DNA of 63,985 nt, the filler included, from Licmophora abbreviata (Eukaryota), in the NCBI GenBank assembly GCA_900291995.1. It is 11 parts of 11 records of this genome, joined end to end, with 100 filler letters (N's around TTAATTAATTAA, not from the genome) between each part and the next. Parts side by side here need not be neighbours in the genome. Positions count along the whole stretch, not along the records: positions 37,932 to 40,933 come from OLMU01002998.1; 10 more parts are not named here. One strand, given 5' to 3'. Shown one piece after another: positions 4,877 through 62,936 of the stretch. The notes below the pieces were generated by a model. It was not told the DNA's origin, did no database searches, and saw nothing but the letters and a program-made list of their open reading frames with translations. The position numbers were made by a program, and so were the translations under genes. Position 1 is the stretch's first letter; each line of letters begins with the position of its first letter.

Positions 4877-4976
4877 NNNNNNNNNNNNNNNNNNNNNNNN
4901 NNNNNNNNNNNNNNNNNNNNTTAATTAATTAANNNNNNNNNNNNNNNNNNNNNNNNNNNNNNNNNNNNNNNNNNNN
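4877..4976. other. Artificial assembly spacer
   Basis: N-run with TTAATTAATTAA. Confidence 0.98.
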
Positions 4977-7379: not shown

Positions 7380-7479
7380 NNNNNNNNNNNNNNNNNNNNN
7401 NNNNNNNNNNNNNNNNNNNNNNNTTAATTAATTAANNNNNNNNNNNNNNNNNNNNNNNNNNNNNNNNNNNNNNNNNNNN
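7380..7479. other. Artificial assembly spacer
   Basis: N-run with TTAATTAATTAA. Confidence 0.98.
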
Positions 7480-16198: not shown

Positions 16199-16298
16199 NN
16201 NNNNNNNNNNNNNNNNNNNNNNNNNNNNNNNNNNNNNNNNNNTTAATTAATTAANNNNNNNNNNNNNNNNNNNNNNNNNNNNNNNNNNNNNNNNNNNN
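16199..16298. other. Artificial assembly spacer
   Basis: N-run with TTAATTAATTAA. Confidence 0.98.
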
Positions 16299-19654: not shown

Positions 19655-19754
19655 NNNNNNNNNNNNNNNNNNNNNNNNNNNNNNNNNNNNNNNNNNNNTT
19701 AATTAATTAANNNNNNNNNNNNNNNNNNNNNNNNNNNNNNNNNNNNNNNNNNNN
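19655..19754. other. Artificial assembly spacer
   Basis: N-run with TTAATTAATTAA. Confidence 0.98.
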
Positions 19755-29017: not shown

Positions 29018-29117
29018 NNNNNNNNNNNNNNNNNNNNNNNNNNNNNNNNNNNNNNNNNNNNTTAATTAATTAANNNNNNNNNNNNNNNNNNNNNNNNNNN
29101 NNNNNNNNNNNNNNNNN
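29018..29117. other. Artificial assembly spacer
   Basis: N-run with TTAATTAATTAA. Confidence 0.98.
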
Positions 29118-34693: not shown

Positions 34694-37259
34694 ATGAGCA
34701 GTACTATGAGTAGTACTACTCCAACGGAAGCTCCTTCTCGGGCAGCCTTACGACGTGCTCGTCGTGTCTGCGTGAAAGCGGGTACGTCTGTAGTGGCAAA
34801 TGAAGATGGGCGTCCGTCACTCACGCGCTTGGGCGCCATTGCAGAACAAATCGCGGAGCTCAACCGACGAGGTGTTCAGGTCATCTTTGTCAGTTCGGGC
34901 GCAGTCGGAATGGGCAAGAGGCTGTTGCGAAAACAAGGGCGTTTGAATATGAAGTTTAAAGATATTCAGAATCAAGATGGGCACGAGACGAGGGACACAG
35001 CCTTGATGATGGGGACATCGCCGACGGTGTCACCGCACGCCCCACGAAGAACTTCGTCGACTGGAAGCTTCGCGTCGCTCTTGCAGCTCAACGCGAGGCC
35101 TCATTCGAGTGCCGAGAAGAAAAAGTACTACGATTCTGCCTGTGCTGCAGCTGGTCAATTCGAAATGATGAACCTTTATCAGAGTTTGTTCGATCAGGTC
35201 GACGTCGCCGCTTCTCAGGTCTTGGTGACGGGGGCGGACTTTTCGGACCCTCAGCGATTGAACAATCTTACCTATGCCGTCGATCGTCTCTTGGCTCTGG
35301 GTATCGTGCCTATAATTAACGAAAATGACGCCGTCTCTGCCAACTTGGGATATACGCCCAATGATGTCTTTTCGGACAATGACTCCTTGGCCTCTCTTTG
35401 CGCAAGGAACTTTGGAGCCGAAGTCCTATTGCTGTTGACCGACGTCGGTGGAGTCTACGATCGTCCTCCATCTGAGCCGGACTCACAGTTGGTGTCCTTG
35501 TACCAGAATGACTCGGCTGTTTCCATTGGTGCCAAGAGCTCCCAAGGCCGCGGAGGTATGGCTTCCAAAATCGAAGCGGCGCTGGCGGCCGTGCAACCTG
35601 GATCTCATTGCAGTGCTTGTGTCGTGGCCGCGGGGTCCGATTTGAACACGATTCGCGCTATATTGGGTCCGGATGAGACTTATGGAACCAAAGGAACTCT
35701 GTTTGTGACGGCGGGAAGTGACTTGGAGCAGCAGGCGTTGAAAGATATGGCAGCCAACGAGGTGAGTCGAGGCTATCTGGAACGAAGAAGTCATTGTCGC
35801 GCCCGCTCACGTTGTCTCTCACTCTTTCCCCTATGTAGAATTCAAATGGAACATCCGTATCAGACGAAGCGAGGCAAAAGGCTGTCGCTGCTCGGACTGA
35901 GGCACGAAAGCTGCAAGCAGCTCCGCATCATGTCCGCCAGGACATTCTTCGAGCCATTGCCGGGGCGCTGCTCGAACGACAGGACGAGCTTCTTGAAGCA
36001 AATACACTCGACGTGGAAGCTGCAGAACGTGATGGAATTGATTTGGTCCTCAAGAAGCGTCTCAAGCTGACCGAGGAGAAGCTTGCGACGCTGGCATCGG
36101 GGCTGCTTCAGCTGGCTGACATGCCGGATCCTCTGGGAATTGTCAAGAGCAAGCGCGAGCTCTCTGACGGACTGGAGCTGTCACTCACGACCGTCCCCAT
36201 TGGCGTCCTGATGATCATATTTGAGTCGCGCCCCGATTCCATGCCGCAAATATCGGCTTTGGCAATCGCGAGCGGCAATGGACTCCTTCTAAAAGGTGGA
36301 AAGGAGGCGGCACATTCTAACGCCACCATTCACAATGTTATCGGAGATGCCATTGAGTCGGGAAGCAGAGGAACTATCAAGAGAGACATAATTGCTCTTG
36401 TTACGAGTCGAGGGCAGGTAAGAAGGAACTGACAGGAGATGATACTTTGCCTTCGTTCCTGCATCCACAGGCTAAATGCCAATTTCATATCTACACCACA
36501 CAGGTCGCTGACATGTTGAGTTTAGACAATGTCATTGATTTGGTGATTCCAAGGGGCAGCAACGCCTTGGTATCATACATCAAAGCGAACACTCGCATTC
36601 CGGTTTTGGGCCATGCAGACGGCGTGTGTCATGTCTACGTGGACGCATCGGCCGACGCCGAACGCGCCTGCAAGATTGCCGTGGACGCCAAGACGGACTA
36701 TCCTGCAGCATGCAACGCCATGGAGACTCTTTTATTGCACAAGGATACTTTGACCAACGGCGTTGCTGCTGGCACTCTCATGGCGTTGCGAGTTTCCGGT
36801 GTCAAGTGTCTTGGTGGACCGCTTGCAATGAAATCAGGCTTGTGTGACGTTGCGGCCGAGGAAATGAAATTCGAGTATGGGGACTTGACCTGTCTAGTAG
36901 AGCTGGTAGAAACTATGGACGACGCGATCGACTGGATTCATGAATTTGGCAGCGGACACACCGAAGTGATTGTTTGTAGCGACGAAAGCGAAGTCGGCGA
37001 AGAGTTTCTTCGAAGAGTGGATGCGGCGTGTGTATTCAAGAACGCGTCGTCACGCTTTGCCGACGGGTTCCGATTTGGTCTCGGAGCAGAGGTTGGAATT
37101 TCTACCGGCCGCATTCATGCAAGGGGACCCGTGGGAGTTGAGGGTCTCCTTACAACCAAGTGGCAACTTCGATCCAAGAGCGGCATCTACTATGTTTCCG
37201 AGTTTGGCGGAGACGAGCCTTCGAAAAAGTACACCCACAAGGATCTTCCTGTCGACTAG
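34694..37259 (+). CDS. P5CS: Delta-1-pyrroline-5-carboxylate synthase (glutamate 5-kinase + gamma-glutamyl phosphate reductase); 3 exons
   Basis: VKAGTS, VSSGAV, PIINEND, DNDSLA, GRGGMASK; IFESRP, LLKGGKEA, ACNAMETLL, NASSRFADGFRFGLGAEVGISTGRIHARGPVG; introns 35762-35839 and 36418-36503. Confidence 0.95.
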
Positions 37260-37831: not shown

Positions 37832-37931
37832 NNNNNNNNNNNNNNNNNNNNNNNNNNNNNNNNNNNNNNNNNNNNTTAATTAATTAANNNNNNNNNNNNN
37901 NNNNNNNNNNNNNNNNNNNNNNNNNNNNNNN
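37832..37931. other. Artificial assembly spacer
   Basis: N-run with TTAATTAATTAA. Confidence 0.98.
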
Positions 37932-38085
37932 GGGATTATGCGTTGATGTGGTGTTTGTTACCATACATCCAAGGAATGAACGAAACAGTTTATACTAGGA
38001 TATTTGGCTTTATTCAACAATTGTTATGAGTTAGTGTACGTACGGCCTTGCCGAGAGCGAGACGACCGAAAATTTACGTCCCATC

Positions 38086-40848
38086 CTACATATTCTTTCG
38101 CTTGCTGCGTCCATTGGCCCAGAGTGCGCCTCGATAGCAAGAGCCGAACGCAATAGACATGATGGTTGAACCGAGCGCTAAGCCGATGATCAGTATCCAC
38201 GGCATTGGCGCTGGCGACCCCTGCCTAGAAAAGCACAGTGGCAAAGTATGGCTGCCTGCGCGTCTCAGTGGATGGCCTTCGGTAGTGAAGACGAATTCGT
38301 CCAGCGCCACATAGTCGTCTGGTCCAAACAGCAACAACAGATACTTGAGCGTTTCTGCAAGAAAGTACGACGGAGTATCATCCACTCGCCCACTGGAAGG
38401 GTCATGCACATTTTCTAGACCTACATAGCCATGTTCGACTCGACAACTCGTTTCAAGGCTCTGAAACACTCTCCACCCCATGTGCTGATACTTGACGTCC
38501 TTGGTCAGACGATAGAGCACGAAGAGGCTCTCTACAAACTCCGGTCGTAGCAGATACTCGTGGCGTCCGCCCTCCCTTGCCAACAGTCTGCCCTTGAGTA
38601 CCCGCGCCTGTTCGGGAGCCAATCCCGAGACAGAGCCCCTGTACGCACGGTAACACCCTTCCAACAGCTGCCTTGCGAGCAGCATCTCTGTTCCTGCAGT
38701 CTCGTCGTTTCCCAGCCTGCCAGCACCAAGCGCTAGCATTCCCGGCACGAAGCAAAGCAAATGGTGAAACTGGTCTCCAAGGTCGACTGGAAAGGAAACA
38801 TTAGCATCACCGTACAGCGCATGCTTTGGTCGAATAGCTTTGGCTACCAGTGTTTGATACAGCGACAACATGGCTCGATCATTCTCACTGCACGACTCTG
38901 ACACGAATGATGCCTTAGGATCTCTCGGCGCACATCCATTGAGCAACGGTTGTTTGACGAGATACTCATAAAAACTATCGGCTCCCGACCCCAGCGCGCC
39001 CCCTCGATTCACTGCCTCCCCTGTCATAACGTTCCAGTAGGTGGGCAGCATGGGCTGATCACTCTCATCGATGCCCTGTCGTTGAGAACTACTTCGATGC
39101 GAGACGTGTCGAAAGATTGCATTGGCAGCTCGTCGATACCGTTCATCCCCAGTGATAGTACTAAGATGGACAAATTCAATGAAGGACCCCACACCCGCAA
39201 GGCTATTGAAATGATGCTCCTGTGTAAACGCATCGCGCCCCCACCGATAGACGGAGGCATACAAGCGATACCAGGCAGCGCGAAAGAGTCCCTCTGATGG
39301 AGCCAGCATATCAAACATACGGGGCAAAACGGTCGGTGAGCTACGAAACGCTCCATCCAACAATGCATCGGCTGCCACTTTTGCTTGCGTCAGTAGTCTT
39401 GCGTCACCCGATAGGCTGTACGCCCCGAGCAATCCGCCGACAATTCGTAAGGAATACTCGAACGTCTTGGTGGGATGGTACGAGGTGGTTTGCAGGTCCC
39501 TCGATACAAACCTCGATACGATTTTATCGTATTCGGTCGTGAGGTTTGCCAGATACAGTGTGTCGAGTGCATCGTGCAACGTGGCGCCATAGTGTAACCA
39601 AGAAGTGGCAGTCTGGGAAAGAGGCGAGGCGTCGTCCGCCGGAATGACACTTGCTAGTGACGACGACGCGAGCGCGACAGTTGTGTATCCTTTCCAGGCA
39701 TGTTGAATGGCATCTCGGACTGCTTCGTATCGGTCCCTGCGCTCTCTGGATAGGGCGTTGAGGTTCGGAGGTGCGATGGGCTGTAGCGTGTGGCAGCGAC
39801 CCTGTTCGTCAAGATCGTGTTGTAGGGACAGTTTCGTGGGAAGCCATTTTCGCAAGGATTGCAGTAACTCCCAGCGATTGTGATTGGGCAAATGCAGAAT
39901 CCAATCCTTGGACTGGTAGAGTTGCTTGGACTGGCCTCGCACGCGACTTTGTAGCCATCTTGCTTCTTCTTCTTCATGCAATGTTGTCGTCGACGACGAC
40001 GACGACGACGACAGGAGATTCACCGCGCATGAAGTATAAGTATGGTTTCGATCAATGGCAGCAATCATGCTGGCCTGGTCGGTAAAGCGATCAAACTGGG
40101 CATCGGTAGTAGAGTATGTTGTCAATGTATCCAAGAGCAAGTCACGAGTCGTCTTGGTATTGAGCAGGAGCATGACACCCGCATTGGGTCCCATTGCGTC
40201 GGAGGCCCATATCAAGCAAATGTCATGAACATCGTGGATGCGCTTCCTGCGAATAATGTAGTCTACGCGATCGTCCAGTGCAACATCCATGTTGGCAAAG
40301 ACAGTATCTCCATCAGTCCATAGCACATAGTCCAAGGAATTTCGGTATGTTTGGAGTATATACAGCAGATAGCGGGTCTTATCGTACATCATCTTGCGTC
40401 GCGGCAGGCTCTGCCATTCCGAAAGCGGGTACAAGTGGGAGTCTGGCGGGAAGGAGCGTTGATTGAAATAGGCATATCCATGCGACGCAGCGTAGTGTTT
40501 CTTGTTGCGATCGAAGCATCGTCCCAGATACCCCCAGAATTTGGGTCCCCGATGAAGCGACACAACAGCGGCGTGTGTCTTGTCGGGGGCAATGAGTTTG
40601 AGGTAGTGGGAAGTTTGGATTCCCAAGTCGATTCGACTCAGAATAACATAGTAGTACGTTTCATGAAGCATCAACAACAACGATAAGGTACCGAATGTAA
40701 GAAAGATACACGAGCGGCAGTGTGAAGGCAGACAATCGATCGGTGGGTCTTGGGACCTTCGTAGTCGCTGTCTGGTCGAGGTGCCACGTTCCCGCCCTTT
40801 CTCCACGTCGAAACCGGCATATCCATCGTCATCCCGTCTTTTTCTCAT
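38086..40848 (-). CDS. Fusion protein: GT34-like (MNN10/GMA12-type) glycosyltransferase + GH47 alpha-1,2-mannosidase, two TM helices
   Basis: Single 920-aa ORF; GT part NKKHYAASHGY, YVLWTDGDT, NAGVMLL, DQ, WILH; GH47 part HAWKGY, DALDTLYL, FEYSLRIVGGLLGAY, GADSFYEYL, RPEFVES, FLAETLKY, FTTEGHP. Confidence 0.88.
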   Translation of the reverse strand: MRKRRDDDGYAGFDVEKGRERGTSTRQRLRRSQDPPIDCLPSHCRSCIFLTFGTLSLLLMLHETYYYVILSRIDLGIQTSHYLKLIAPDKTHAAVVSLHRGPKFWGYLGRCFDRNKKHYAASHGYAYFNQRSFPPDSHLYPLSEWQSLPRRKMMYDKTRYLLYILQTYRNSLDYVLWTDGDTVFANMDVALDDRVDYIIRRKRIHDVHDICLIWASDAMGPNAGVMLLLNTKTTRDLLLDTLTTYSTTDAQFDRFTDQASMIAAIDRNHTYTSCAVNLLSSSSSSSTTTLHEEEEARWLQSRVRGQSKQLYQSKDWILHLPNHNRWELLQSLRKWLPTKLSLQHDLDEQGRCHTLQPIAPPNLNALSRERRDRYEAVRDAIQHAWKGYTTVALASSSLASVIPADDASPLSQTATSWLHYGATLHDALDTLYLANLTTEYDKIVSRFVSRDLQTTSYHPTKTFEYSLRIVGGLLGAYSLSGDARLLTQAKVAADALLDGAFRSSPTVLPRMFDMLAPSEGLFRAAWYRLYASVYRWGRDAFTQEHHFNSLAGVGSFIEFVHLSTITGDERYRRAANAIFRHVSHRSSSQRQGIDESDQPMLPTYWNVMTGEAVNRGGALGSGADSFYEYLVKQPLLNGCAPRDPKASFVSESCSENDRAMLSLYQTLVAKAIRPKHALYGDANVSFPVDLGDQFHHLLCFVPGMLALGAGRLGNDETAGTEMLLARQLLEGCYRAYRGSVSGLAPEQARVLKGRLLAREGGRHEYLLRPEFVESLFVLYRLTKDVKYQHMGWRVFQSLETSCRVEHGYVGLENVHDPSSGRVDDTPSYFLAETLKYLLLLFGPDDYVALDEFVFTTEGHPLRRAGSHTLPLCFSRQGSPAPMPWILIIGLALGSTIMSIAFGSCYRGALWANGRSKRKNM

Positions 40849-40933
40849 CTCCTCTTGTCTATCTCATTCTCGATACTCAATTTATTCGTAGTACAGTATG
40901 ATTCGCATCACTGCACAACGAAATCTGATGATG

Positions 40934-41033
40934 NNNNNNNNNNNNNNNNNNNNNNNNNNNNNNNNNNNNNNNNNNNNTTAATTAATTAANNNNNNNNNNN
41001 NNNNNNNNNNNNNNNNNNNNNNNNNNNNNNNNN
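40934..41033. other. Artificial assembly spacer
   Basis: N-run with TTAATTAATTAA. Confidence 0.98.
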
Positions 41034-57146: not shown

Positions 57147-57246
57147 NNNNNNNNNNNNNNNNNNNNNNNNNNNNNNNNNNNNNNNNNNNNTTAATTAATT
57201 AANNNNNNNNNNNNNNNNNNNNNNNNNNNNNNNNNNNNNNNNNNNN
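57147..57246. other. Artificial assembly spacer
   Basis: N-run with TTAATTAATTAA. Confidence 0.98.
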
Positions 57247-62836: not shown

Positions 62837-62936
62837 NNNNNNNNNNNNNNNNNNNNNNNNNNNNNNNNNNNNNNNNNNNNTTAATTAATTAANNNNNNNN
62901 NNNNNNNNNNNNNNNNNNNNNNNNNNNNNNNNNNNN
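62837..62936. other. Artificial assembly spacer
   Basis: N-run with TTAATTAATTAA. Confidence 0.98.

Follow-up and report, generated by a model that had tools for sequence, protein, structure and literature searches.

Class I alpha-1,2-mannosidases of glycoside hydrolase family 47 (GH47), among them mouse Golgi ManIA (1nxc), human endoplasmic reticulum (ER) ManI (1x9d), and plant MNS1, remove alpha-1,2-linked mannose from oligomannose N-glycans. The characterised enzymes of glycosyltransferase family 34 (GT34) in CAZy, including Arabidopsis XXT1/2/5, yeast Mnn10/Mnn11, and S. pombe Gma12, add alpha-linked mannose, galactose, or xylose, in fungi to the mannose of N- and O-glycans. Both families are well known, and the joining of a hydrolase to a transferase has a precedent in diatoms: in the part of a 2025 review available to us, the Man II/GnT II enzyme (GH38 plus GT16) of P. 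tricornutum and other diatoms is described as a bifunctional type II protein made from a single transcript, and such bifunctional enzymes are called probably rare in microalgae (PMC12507850). Here, we analysed a window of 63,985 nucleotides, the whole stretch of DNA under study, from Licmophora abbreviata (assembly GCA_900291995.1), in which one gene on the minus strand (38086..40848) encodes a GT34-type domain fused to a GH47 domain. Like Man II/GnT II, the product would be a type II membrane protein in which a mannose-trimming hydrolase is joined to a glycosyltransferase. It differs from that enzyme in its families (GH47 and GT34 rather than GH38 and GT16), in its order (the transferase comes first here, the hydrolase there), and in the pathway step, which is later for Man II/GnT II; it also has a second anchor and a di-lysine tail, which the same part of the review does not mention for Man II/GnT II.

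The gene is intact and intronless. ORF (open reading frame) scanning and translation of 38086..40848 (-) give a single-exon coding sequence of 920 codons plus a stop codon, with no internal stop, in agreement with the uninterrupted 920-residue frame described in a first-pass annotation made from the letters alone. Two in-frame stops lie upstream of the ATG (TAA at 36 nt and TGA at 18 nt), so that M1 is the first possible start, and the alignment of the MRKRR start with the MRRR or MIRRR starts of relatives indicates that the start codon is sound. The GC content at third codon positions is even over both halves of the gene (0.586 for the GT34 half and 0.548 for the GH47 half). Scanning the protein against Pfam at E <= 1 returned exactly two families, Glyco_hydro_47 and Glyco_transf_34, both above their curated cut-offs, as anticipated by the annotation, which had read the protein as a GT34-like transferase followed by a full GH47 mannosidase. 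Every motif that it had named was also present: DGD (residues 179-181), PNAGV (221-225), TDQAS (256-260), and WILH (316-319) in the first domain, TFEYSLR (462-468), DSFYEY (624-629), LRPEFVES (767-774), ETLKY (832-836), and TEGH (856-859) in the GH47 domain, and KRKNM (916-920) at the end.

The GH47 domain (residues 374-864; 38257..39729 (-)) was delimited from Pfam, from the sequence matches to 1x9d and 1nxc, and from Foldseek. Its match to PF01532 spans residues 380-863 and the whole profile (1-455 of 455) with 323.7 bits against a cut-off of 22.9 (E 2.7e-96), and among solved structures the domain comes closest in sequence to human ER ManI (1x9d, E 9.8e-58), followed by mouse Golgi ManIA (1nxc, E 6.9e-47). 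The full-length AlphaFold2 model has a mean pLDDT (predicted local distance difference test) of 75.3 and a predicted TM-score (pTM) of 0.67. GH47 structures fill the top 22 Foldseek ranks for this model, with best TM-scores of 0.79-0.81 on the target; the match to 1nxc (E 3.6e-23, TM-score 0.81 on the target) fits the (alpha/alpha)7-barrel fold. Eight residues, which we take to be those that act in catalysis and Ca2+ binding throughout the family (E464, R468, D624, E770, E773, E832, T856, and E857), do not vary in any of the 18 fused sequences and line up with the matching motifs of 1x9d. For E464, D624, E770, and T856 these motifs are FE..R, DSYYEY, RPE, and TEAHP, and in human ER ManI E330, D463, E599, and T688 are presumably the catalytic carboxylates and the Ca2+-binding Thr. 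The annotated full GH47 domain, with its catalytic and Ca2+ sites, is therefore recovered, and mannosidase activity is likely.

Compared with the described class I enzymes, the shared features are the full-length profile match, the fold, the catalytic and Ca2+ motifs, and the type II N-terminal anchor. The diatom sequences to which our protein belongs differ from them in having FEYS(L/I)R instead of FETTIR and Gly or Ala at the position of the ER ManI Arg, and in adding a C-terminal transmembrane helix and a di-lysine tail; the protein studied here additionally carries the GT34 domain between anchor and stem. The position two residues before the catalytic Asp (residue 622) is Gly here, Gly or Ala in the rows of the diatom clade, Leu or Met in the ManIA/MNS1 rows, and Arg in human ER ManI. 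The signature of the ER mannosidase I subtype, in which Arg at this position goes with conversion of Man9 to Man8B only, is thus absent from our protein, which has Gly622. In work on the yeast R273L variant and in a structure paper on the P. citrinum enzyme, this Arg reportedly restricts ER ManI to one arm. Since Gly622 replaces this specificity residue, the trimming pattern is probably broader, of the Golgi or fungal type, and would involve more than one arm. Outside the diatoms, the nearest sequences are also of the Golgi ManIA/MNS1 type.

The first domain (residues 85-336; 39841..40596 (-)) was identified as a GT34-type GT-A domain by Pfam, profile search, structural model, and Foldseek. 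PF05637 matches residues 105-319 (profile 22-227 of 238) with 33.0 bits against a cut-off of 23 (E 6.6e-8). A profile of 11 GT34-part sequences retrieved only three distinct sequences from the PDB at E <= 10, all xyloglucan xylosyltransferases: XXT5 (3e-4), XXT1 (0.014), and XXT2 (0.03). In these alignments the LW.DGDA segment of the family is placed on the WWMDSDA segment of XXT5 and XXT1, with D179-G-D181 over the D-S-D of the DxD motif. A search with a protein language model (Atlas) led to PF05637 clusters with a score of 0.97. Modeled alone, residues 85-345 display a pLDDT of 83.7 and a pTM of 0.84, and the closest solved structure is the transferase domain of chlorovirus PBCV-1 A064R (Foldseek E 5e-7; VIA Z 19.1; 201 residues aligned with a root-mean-square deviation of 3.3), followed by XXT1 (Foldseek E 1.5e-6; VIA Z 15.2; 209 residues aligned). 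Beyond these two, only other retaining GT-A enzymes appear, namely the catalytic domain of UGGT (13.9), LARGE1, glycogenin, and LH3, and identity to the solved structures is only 12-16%. In a review, the fold of A064R is itself likened to retaining GT-A family 34 (PMC5408694). Compared with the characterised GT34 enzymes, A064R domain 1 included, our domain shares PF05637 and the DxD placed on the XXT D-S-D, but it belongs to a diatom clade of its own, has a conserved QSRVRG...WILHLPNHN signature, and is fused to a glycoside hydrolase.

Two side observations concern this domain. A Ser/Thr/Glu-rich insert, SSSSSSSTTTLHEEEE (residues 279-296; 39961-40014 (-)), is absent from 17 of 17 aligned relatives and has pLDDT values below 50 in the model. 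The nearest Atlas clusters of the GT34 part (residues 80-345) contain giant-virus (Nucleocytoviricota) glycosyltransferases rather than plant or fungal GT34 enzymes, and the nearest solved structure is likewise viral (chlorovirus A064R); the taxa of such clusters are no proof of gene transfer.

Conservation within the GT34 part bears on whether the domain works at all. All 18 fused sequences have D179, and 17 have D181, the exception being P0018 with Glu; D217, N230, R235, Q300, S301, W316, H319, and H323 are invariant in all 18, so that the positions of note in the domain are DGD 179-181, D217, N230, R235, QSRVRG 300-305, and H319/H323. The two Asp of the DxD and the two His are also invariant in 11 of 11 sequences of the GT34-only set. 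In XXT1, His377 is presumably the C-terminal His that completes the Mn2+ site; the Pfam match reaches residue 319, and H319 or H323 may be the counterpart of the XXT1 His. One could suppose that the domain is catalytically dead and serves the mannosidase as a module for binding carbohydrate or nucleotide, for oligomerisation, or for selecting substrates, as its modest Pfam score (33 bits), the DGE of P0018 in place of the DxD, the degenerate 17-bit remnant that is all Thalassiosira exigua P0037 keeps, and the dispensability of the domain in close relatives would allow. The retention of the DxD in 17 of 18 fused and 11 of 11 GT34-only sequences, the two invariant His and other invariant polar residues, and a mean pairwise identity of 49%, far above that of the tails, make a dead domain quite improbable in our judgement. 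The residues retained in the aligned family are those of a working enzyme, not of a decaying appendage, and GT34 activity is probable.

The fusion recurs well outside this genome. A search of 5.8 billion proteins found the same arrangement in at least 17 other proteins with up to 48% identity, both Pfam families being precomputed in 15 of the 19 best matches, and a hidden Markov model built here from the GT34 part located the transferase domain in two more relatives (P0003 and P0004). The 17 relatives and our protein align end to end with the same domain order, linker, and C-terminal hydrophobic segment, and their mean pairwise identity is 49% in the GT34 part, 58% in the GH47 part, and 19-26% in the tails. 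As no match in that search exceeds 48% identity over the full length, the source organism's own lineage is otherwise absent from the protein database. One fused match is a Detonula confervacea protein (EukProt), whose cluster holds a 970-residue ORF of an MMETSP transcript (P0274), so that both domains lie on one transcript contig in a cultured diatom; diatom and MMETSP data are where the first-pass annotation had proposed to look for the architecture. A 3154-nt contig from another source (L002) carries one continuous frame running from GT34 through GH47 and the hydrophobic segment to a stop. A GT34 profile run against 1.84 billion representatives added a further fused protein of 921 residues (P0139), and a further protein search with the GT34 part gave eight fused proteins, all already known, and no new member.

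These relatives weigh directly on whether the gene could have arisen in error, from a chimeric contig or from two neighboring genes wrongly joined. The inter-domain junction, consisting of the linker and the GH47 stem (residues 337-373, …CHTLQPIAPPNLNALSRERRDR; 39730..39840 (-)), shows no stop or frame break. The gene does lie on a short, 3-kb contig of a fragmented assembly, and no RNA read crosses the junction for the source organism. Six short read contigs, from three runs of one study guessed to be RNA, match at 99-100% identity and cover 38650-39421 and 40280-40525 only; they leave the junction (39730-39840) uncovered, which is uninformative either way. Against an artefact stand the same junction in 17 aligned relatives from other sources, the cultured-diatom transcript, and the independent contig, together with the uninterrupted frame, the even composition, and the matching groupings in the GT34 and GH47 trees, and we regard such an error as very improbable. 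Because the fusion recurs in other proteins, in a diatom transcript, and in an independent contig, we conclude from these comparisons that it is not an assembly artefact, and the sequences retrieved define a small conserved diatom family rather than a peculiarity of the Licmophora abbreviata genome.

A tree built from 68 GH47 domains places 47 sequences in a clade (Shimodaira-Hasegawa-like approximate likelihood-ratio test, SH-aLRT, 99) that is separate from the MNS1/ManIA-type proteins and has members that are, by source name, from Nitzschia inconspicua, Fragilaria crotonensis, Thalassiosira exigua, and Detonula confervacea. Fused and unfused proteins are interleaved in this clade, which requires five changes of state, at least four of them forced by well-supported branches. 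The same count was obtained in a second tree of 40 rows, which leaves out P0013, P0016, P0025, P0036, P0037, P0038, and P0041 as duplicate, truncated, or ambiguous. The approximately unbiased (AU) test rejects the 18 fused rows as one group (log-likelihood 165 lower, p-AU 7.3e-5), a grouping that was named after the tree was seen. Our protein groups with the unfused P0014 and P0016/P0273, in which the N-terminal tail and anchor are followed directly by the C..PL.PPNL..LS..RR stem; the corresponding C..L.P..PPNL..LS..RR segment of our junction likewise comes directly after the N-terminal anchor in unfused relatives. The unfused members (such as Nitzschia inconspicua P0030, Fragilaria crotonensis P0039, and environmental P0014, P0021, and P0273) belong to the same clade and have the same stem motif and C-terminal helix, but they are without the roughly 250-residue GT34 domain and their stem follows directly on the anchor. 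On the GH47 tree, the GT34 domain has thus been gained or lost at least four times.

Turning to the transferase, every fused protein has its GT34 domain in a single clade, the groupings of which mirror those of GH47 (FastTree, 54 rows). The simplest reading of the two trees would be one ancient fusion followed by several clean deletions of GT34, on trees whose root was not inferred and which leave this direction unproven. At least ten GT34-only relatives of 253-408 residues lie inside the same GT34 clade, and all end 3-15 residues past the WILHLPNHN...SL..W boundary. One of them, P0141, is almost identical to the front of the fused P0139 and looks like the front of a fused gene. A metagenome scan for loci gave two only, L002 and L001. 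L001 carries a frame with GT34 alone (139-1165), whose stop codon falls exactly on the domain boundary (…SLSKFLPKL and then the stop). The contig runs on for 74 AT-rich nucleotides, the last of which read TTTTAG; they may represent an intron left unspliced where GT34 meets GH47 in another species, or the gene may truly end at this stop. The same GT34 clade also holds a 1082-residue protein (P0135) with four tandem GT34 stretches and no GH47 domain. On the GH47 tree, the partial Thalassiosira exigua P0037 (998 residues) falls within the clade of fused centric proteins; rich in Gly, Ala, and Arg, its N-terminal half contains the 17-bit GT34 remnant only and looks like GT34 decay in progress.

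The annotation had placed a transmembrane segment near each end, and hydrophobic helices are indeed found there by Kyte-Doolittle analysis and in the AlphaFold2 model (helices 42-72 and 884-913). The protein starts with a basic tail (residues 1-46, starting MRKRR; 40711..40848 (-)) that is predicted to be cytosolic and contains 12 Lys and Arg and 8 Asp and Glu; the pLDDT of residues 1-40 is below 50. It is followed by the putative signal-anchor helix CIFLTFGTLSLLLMLHETYYYVI (residues 47-69; 40642..40710 (-)), for which the hydropathy is 1.51 over residues 44-62 (19-residue window) and 1.81 with a 17-residue window. After the GH47 domain comes the C-terminal transmembrane helix MPWILIIGLALGSTIMSIAFGSCY (residues 882-905; 38134..38205 (-)), with values of 1.99 over residues 885-903 (19-residue window) and 2.3 (17-residue window), and then the tail RGALWANGRSKRKNM (residues 906-920; 38089..38133 (-)), predicted to be cytosolic and ending in K-x-K-x-x. 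A cleavable signal peptide is unlikely, since 46 hydrophilic residues with 12 Lys and Arg precede the first hydrophobic segment, and a glycosylphosphatidylinositol anchor in place of the C-terminal helix was rejected because a 15-residue basic tail follows the helix. With two anchors and a basic N-terminal tail, residues about 70-881 would be lumenal and both termini cytosolic, in line with the lumenal placement of both domains suggested in the annotation. Three N-x-S/T sequons (N268, N435, and N683) fall in the predicted lumenal part.

The KRKNM end (38089-38103) lies 10 residues after helix 882-905 and fits the di-lysine rule (Lys at -3 and -4/-5), and a cytosolic C-terminus is where such a signal must sit to meet coatomer. 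The KxKxx tail of the annotation is thus present, but it is not a trait of the fusion: within the clade, 18 of 28 unfused proteins and 7 of 21 fused ones terminate in KxKxx or KKxx, counts in which two fused pairs are near-duplicates, so ER retrieval is no constant of the fused form. Of the diatom clade members, 20 of the 21 fused and 25 of the 28 unfused have a hydrophobic segment after GH47; the others are apparently C-terminally truncated or, in the case of P0030, have a different tail. Di-lysine endings are present in 25 of 49 proteins of this clade against none of the 76 other GH47 proteins retrieved (P0046-P0121). The C-terminal anchor and the di-lysine tail are, in this sampling, traits of a diatom-specific GH47 clade whether fused or not. 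At the other end, the MRKRR start (residues 1-5; 40834-40848 (-)) recurs as MRRR, MIRRRR, or MRKRQ in many proteins of the clade, fused as well as unfused, and may constitute a second sorting signal, on the other cytosolic end; di-arginine ER retention motifs and basic ER-export motifs are both known in type II proteins.

A tail of the K-x-K-x-x type suggests ER retrieval, and GH47 includes ER ManI and EDEM/Htm1, the latter among the lower-ranked structural matches of the model. From this, the enzyme might be seen as part of ER quality control, with GH47 generating, or GT34 masking, a mannose-trimmed degradation or sorting signal instead of building the mature glycan. The Gly at the position of the single-arm Arg of ER ManI, the Golgi ManIA/MNS1 type of the nearest non-diatom sequences, and the lack of a di-lysine tail in most fused members argue otherwise, and we give a role of this kind little credence.

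The reading towards which we lean, with moderate conviction, is that of a lumenal enzyme of the ER or cis-Golgi that trims and then extends one and the same glycan. The intact, intronless gene would encode a bifunctional glycan-processing enzyme of the early secretory pathway, stapled into the membrane by the N-terminal signal anchor (47-69) and the C-terminal helix (882-905). Its lumenal part would consist of a retaining GT34-type GT-A transferase that binds metal through the DxD and a class I GH47 mannosidase with a complete catalytic and Ca2+ site. The GH47 domain would remove alpha-1,2-linked mannoses from oligomannose N-glycans, probably from more than one arm, and the tethered GT34 domain would then add an alpha-linked sugar to the mannose exposed by trimming. 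By analogy with Mnn10/11, Gma12, and XXT, the sugar added may be mannose, galactose, or xylose. The cytosolic KRKNM tail would return the enzyme from the cis-Golgi to the ER via coat protein complex I (COPI).

Both domains could also be active on different substrates and share no more than a location. The GT34 domain would then act on O-glycans or on Golgi-made wall or mucilage mannan and the GH47 domain on N-glycans, and the fusion would do no more than position the transferase by means of the two anchors and the retrieval tail that the GH47 scaffold already has. In favor of this, proteins of the GH47 clade have the C-terminal anchor and tail with or without the transferase, GT34 comes and goes on the GH47 tree, and GT34 acceptors are varied, as shown by xyloglucan for XXT and a viral capsid glycan for A064R. 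Action on a common substrate is favored by the constancy of domain order and linker across the whole fused family, by the diatom Man II/GnT II fusion, which joins consecutive steps of one pathway, and by the action of fungal GT34 enzymes on N-glycan mannose. We therefore consider separate substrates unlikely, while granting this explanation more weight than either a dead transferase domain or a quality-control role.

Several observations nevertheless speak against successive trimming and addition on one glycan. The N-glycans of P. tricornutum, in the part of PMC8678454 available to us, are Man5-Man9, Glc1Man9, and one hybrid structure, and no extra alpha-linked cap appears among them; the protein searches made here brought up no fused protein from P. 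tricornutum. The GT34 domain is missing from P0014 and P0273, which are nearest by their GH47 domains, and its repeated gain or loss means that the coupling is dispensable and that trimming does not need GT34. Only 7 of 21 fused members end in di-lysine, the junction is without RNA from the organism itself, the GT34 Pfam score is modest (33 bits), and the full-length model reaches a pTM of 0.67. Finally, A064R, the closest solved structure of the GT34 part, is described in the accessible part of PMC5408694 as a rhamnosyltransferase acting on a viral glycan, so the GT34 fold does not fix the chemistry.

The surroundings of the gene do not contribute to this argument. The window strings together 11 separate contigs, each 1.0-16.1 kb long, by means of ten 100-nt spacers consisting of 44 N, TTAATTAATTAA, and 44 N (2219-2318, 4877-4976, 7380-7479, 16199-16298, 19655-19754, 29018-29117, 37832-37931, 40934-41033, 57147-57246, and 62837-62936). 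Adjacency across a spacer is thus meaningless, the flanking genes are not shown to be linked to the fusion gene, and gene neighborhood was rejected as evidence. The fusion gene is alone on a segment of 3002 nt (37932..40933) with spacers on both sides, an 85-nt 5' flank, and a 154-nt 3' flank with an AATAAA in it. Other segments hold the P5CS-like gene at 34694-37259, the ORFs beyond 41046, and ordinary eukaryotic genes (DEAD/DSHCT helicase, kinase, EamA, VPS9, and trypsin). The P5CS-like gene, on the neighboring segment and on the plus strand, is split into three frames (34694-36070, 36121-36432, and 36513-37259), the first of which matches the AA_kinase family. Its frame breaks suggest short introns, which would make the assembly genomic DNA and the intronless state of the GT34-GH47 gene worth noting.

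A literature search, which did not extend to the supplementary Man I gene lists of PMC12507850, found no published description of a GT34-GH47 fusion. The unfamiliarity of the architecture, as expressed in the first-pass annotation, holds in this respect, but the architecture is shared by a small conserved diatom family and is not unique to this genome. The pairing of GT34 with GH47 and its order, the double-stapled GH47 clade with its di-lysine tails, and the repeated loss of the transferase all appear to be undescribed so far. As a bolder and doubtful extension, diatoms may run successive N-glycan steps on fused, membrane-stapled enzymes, with the GT34-Man I protein making a trimmed oligomannose arm capped with alpha-Gal, Xyl, or Man in the ER or cis-Golgi. 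If true, the product would be a capped N-glycan so far unseen in any diatom glycome, the cap may serve as a lineage-specific sorting or quality-control mark, and the repeated loss of GT34 would predict its presence or absence species by species.

Diatom N-glycan processing is known from very few species and is under engineering in Phaeodactylum for biologics. The enzyme described here would be the second hydrolase-transferase fusion in diatoms after Man II/GnT II, and the double-anchored di-lysine GH47 clade would represent an undescribed mode of retaining class I mannosidases early in the secretory pathway. The natural pairs of fused and unfused proteins offer a ready comparison for the effect of tethering on the glycan product. 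A conserved enzyme linking mannose trimming to a GT34 transfer would imply that some diatoms have N-glycans or quality-control marks outside the current pathway schemes.

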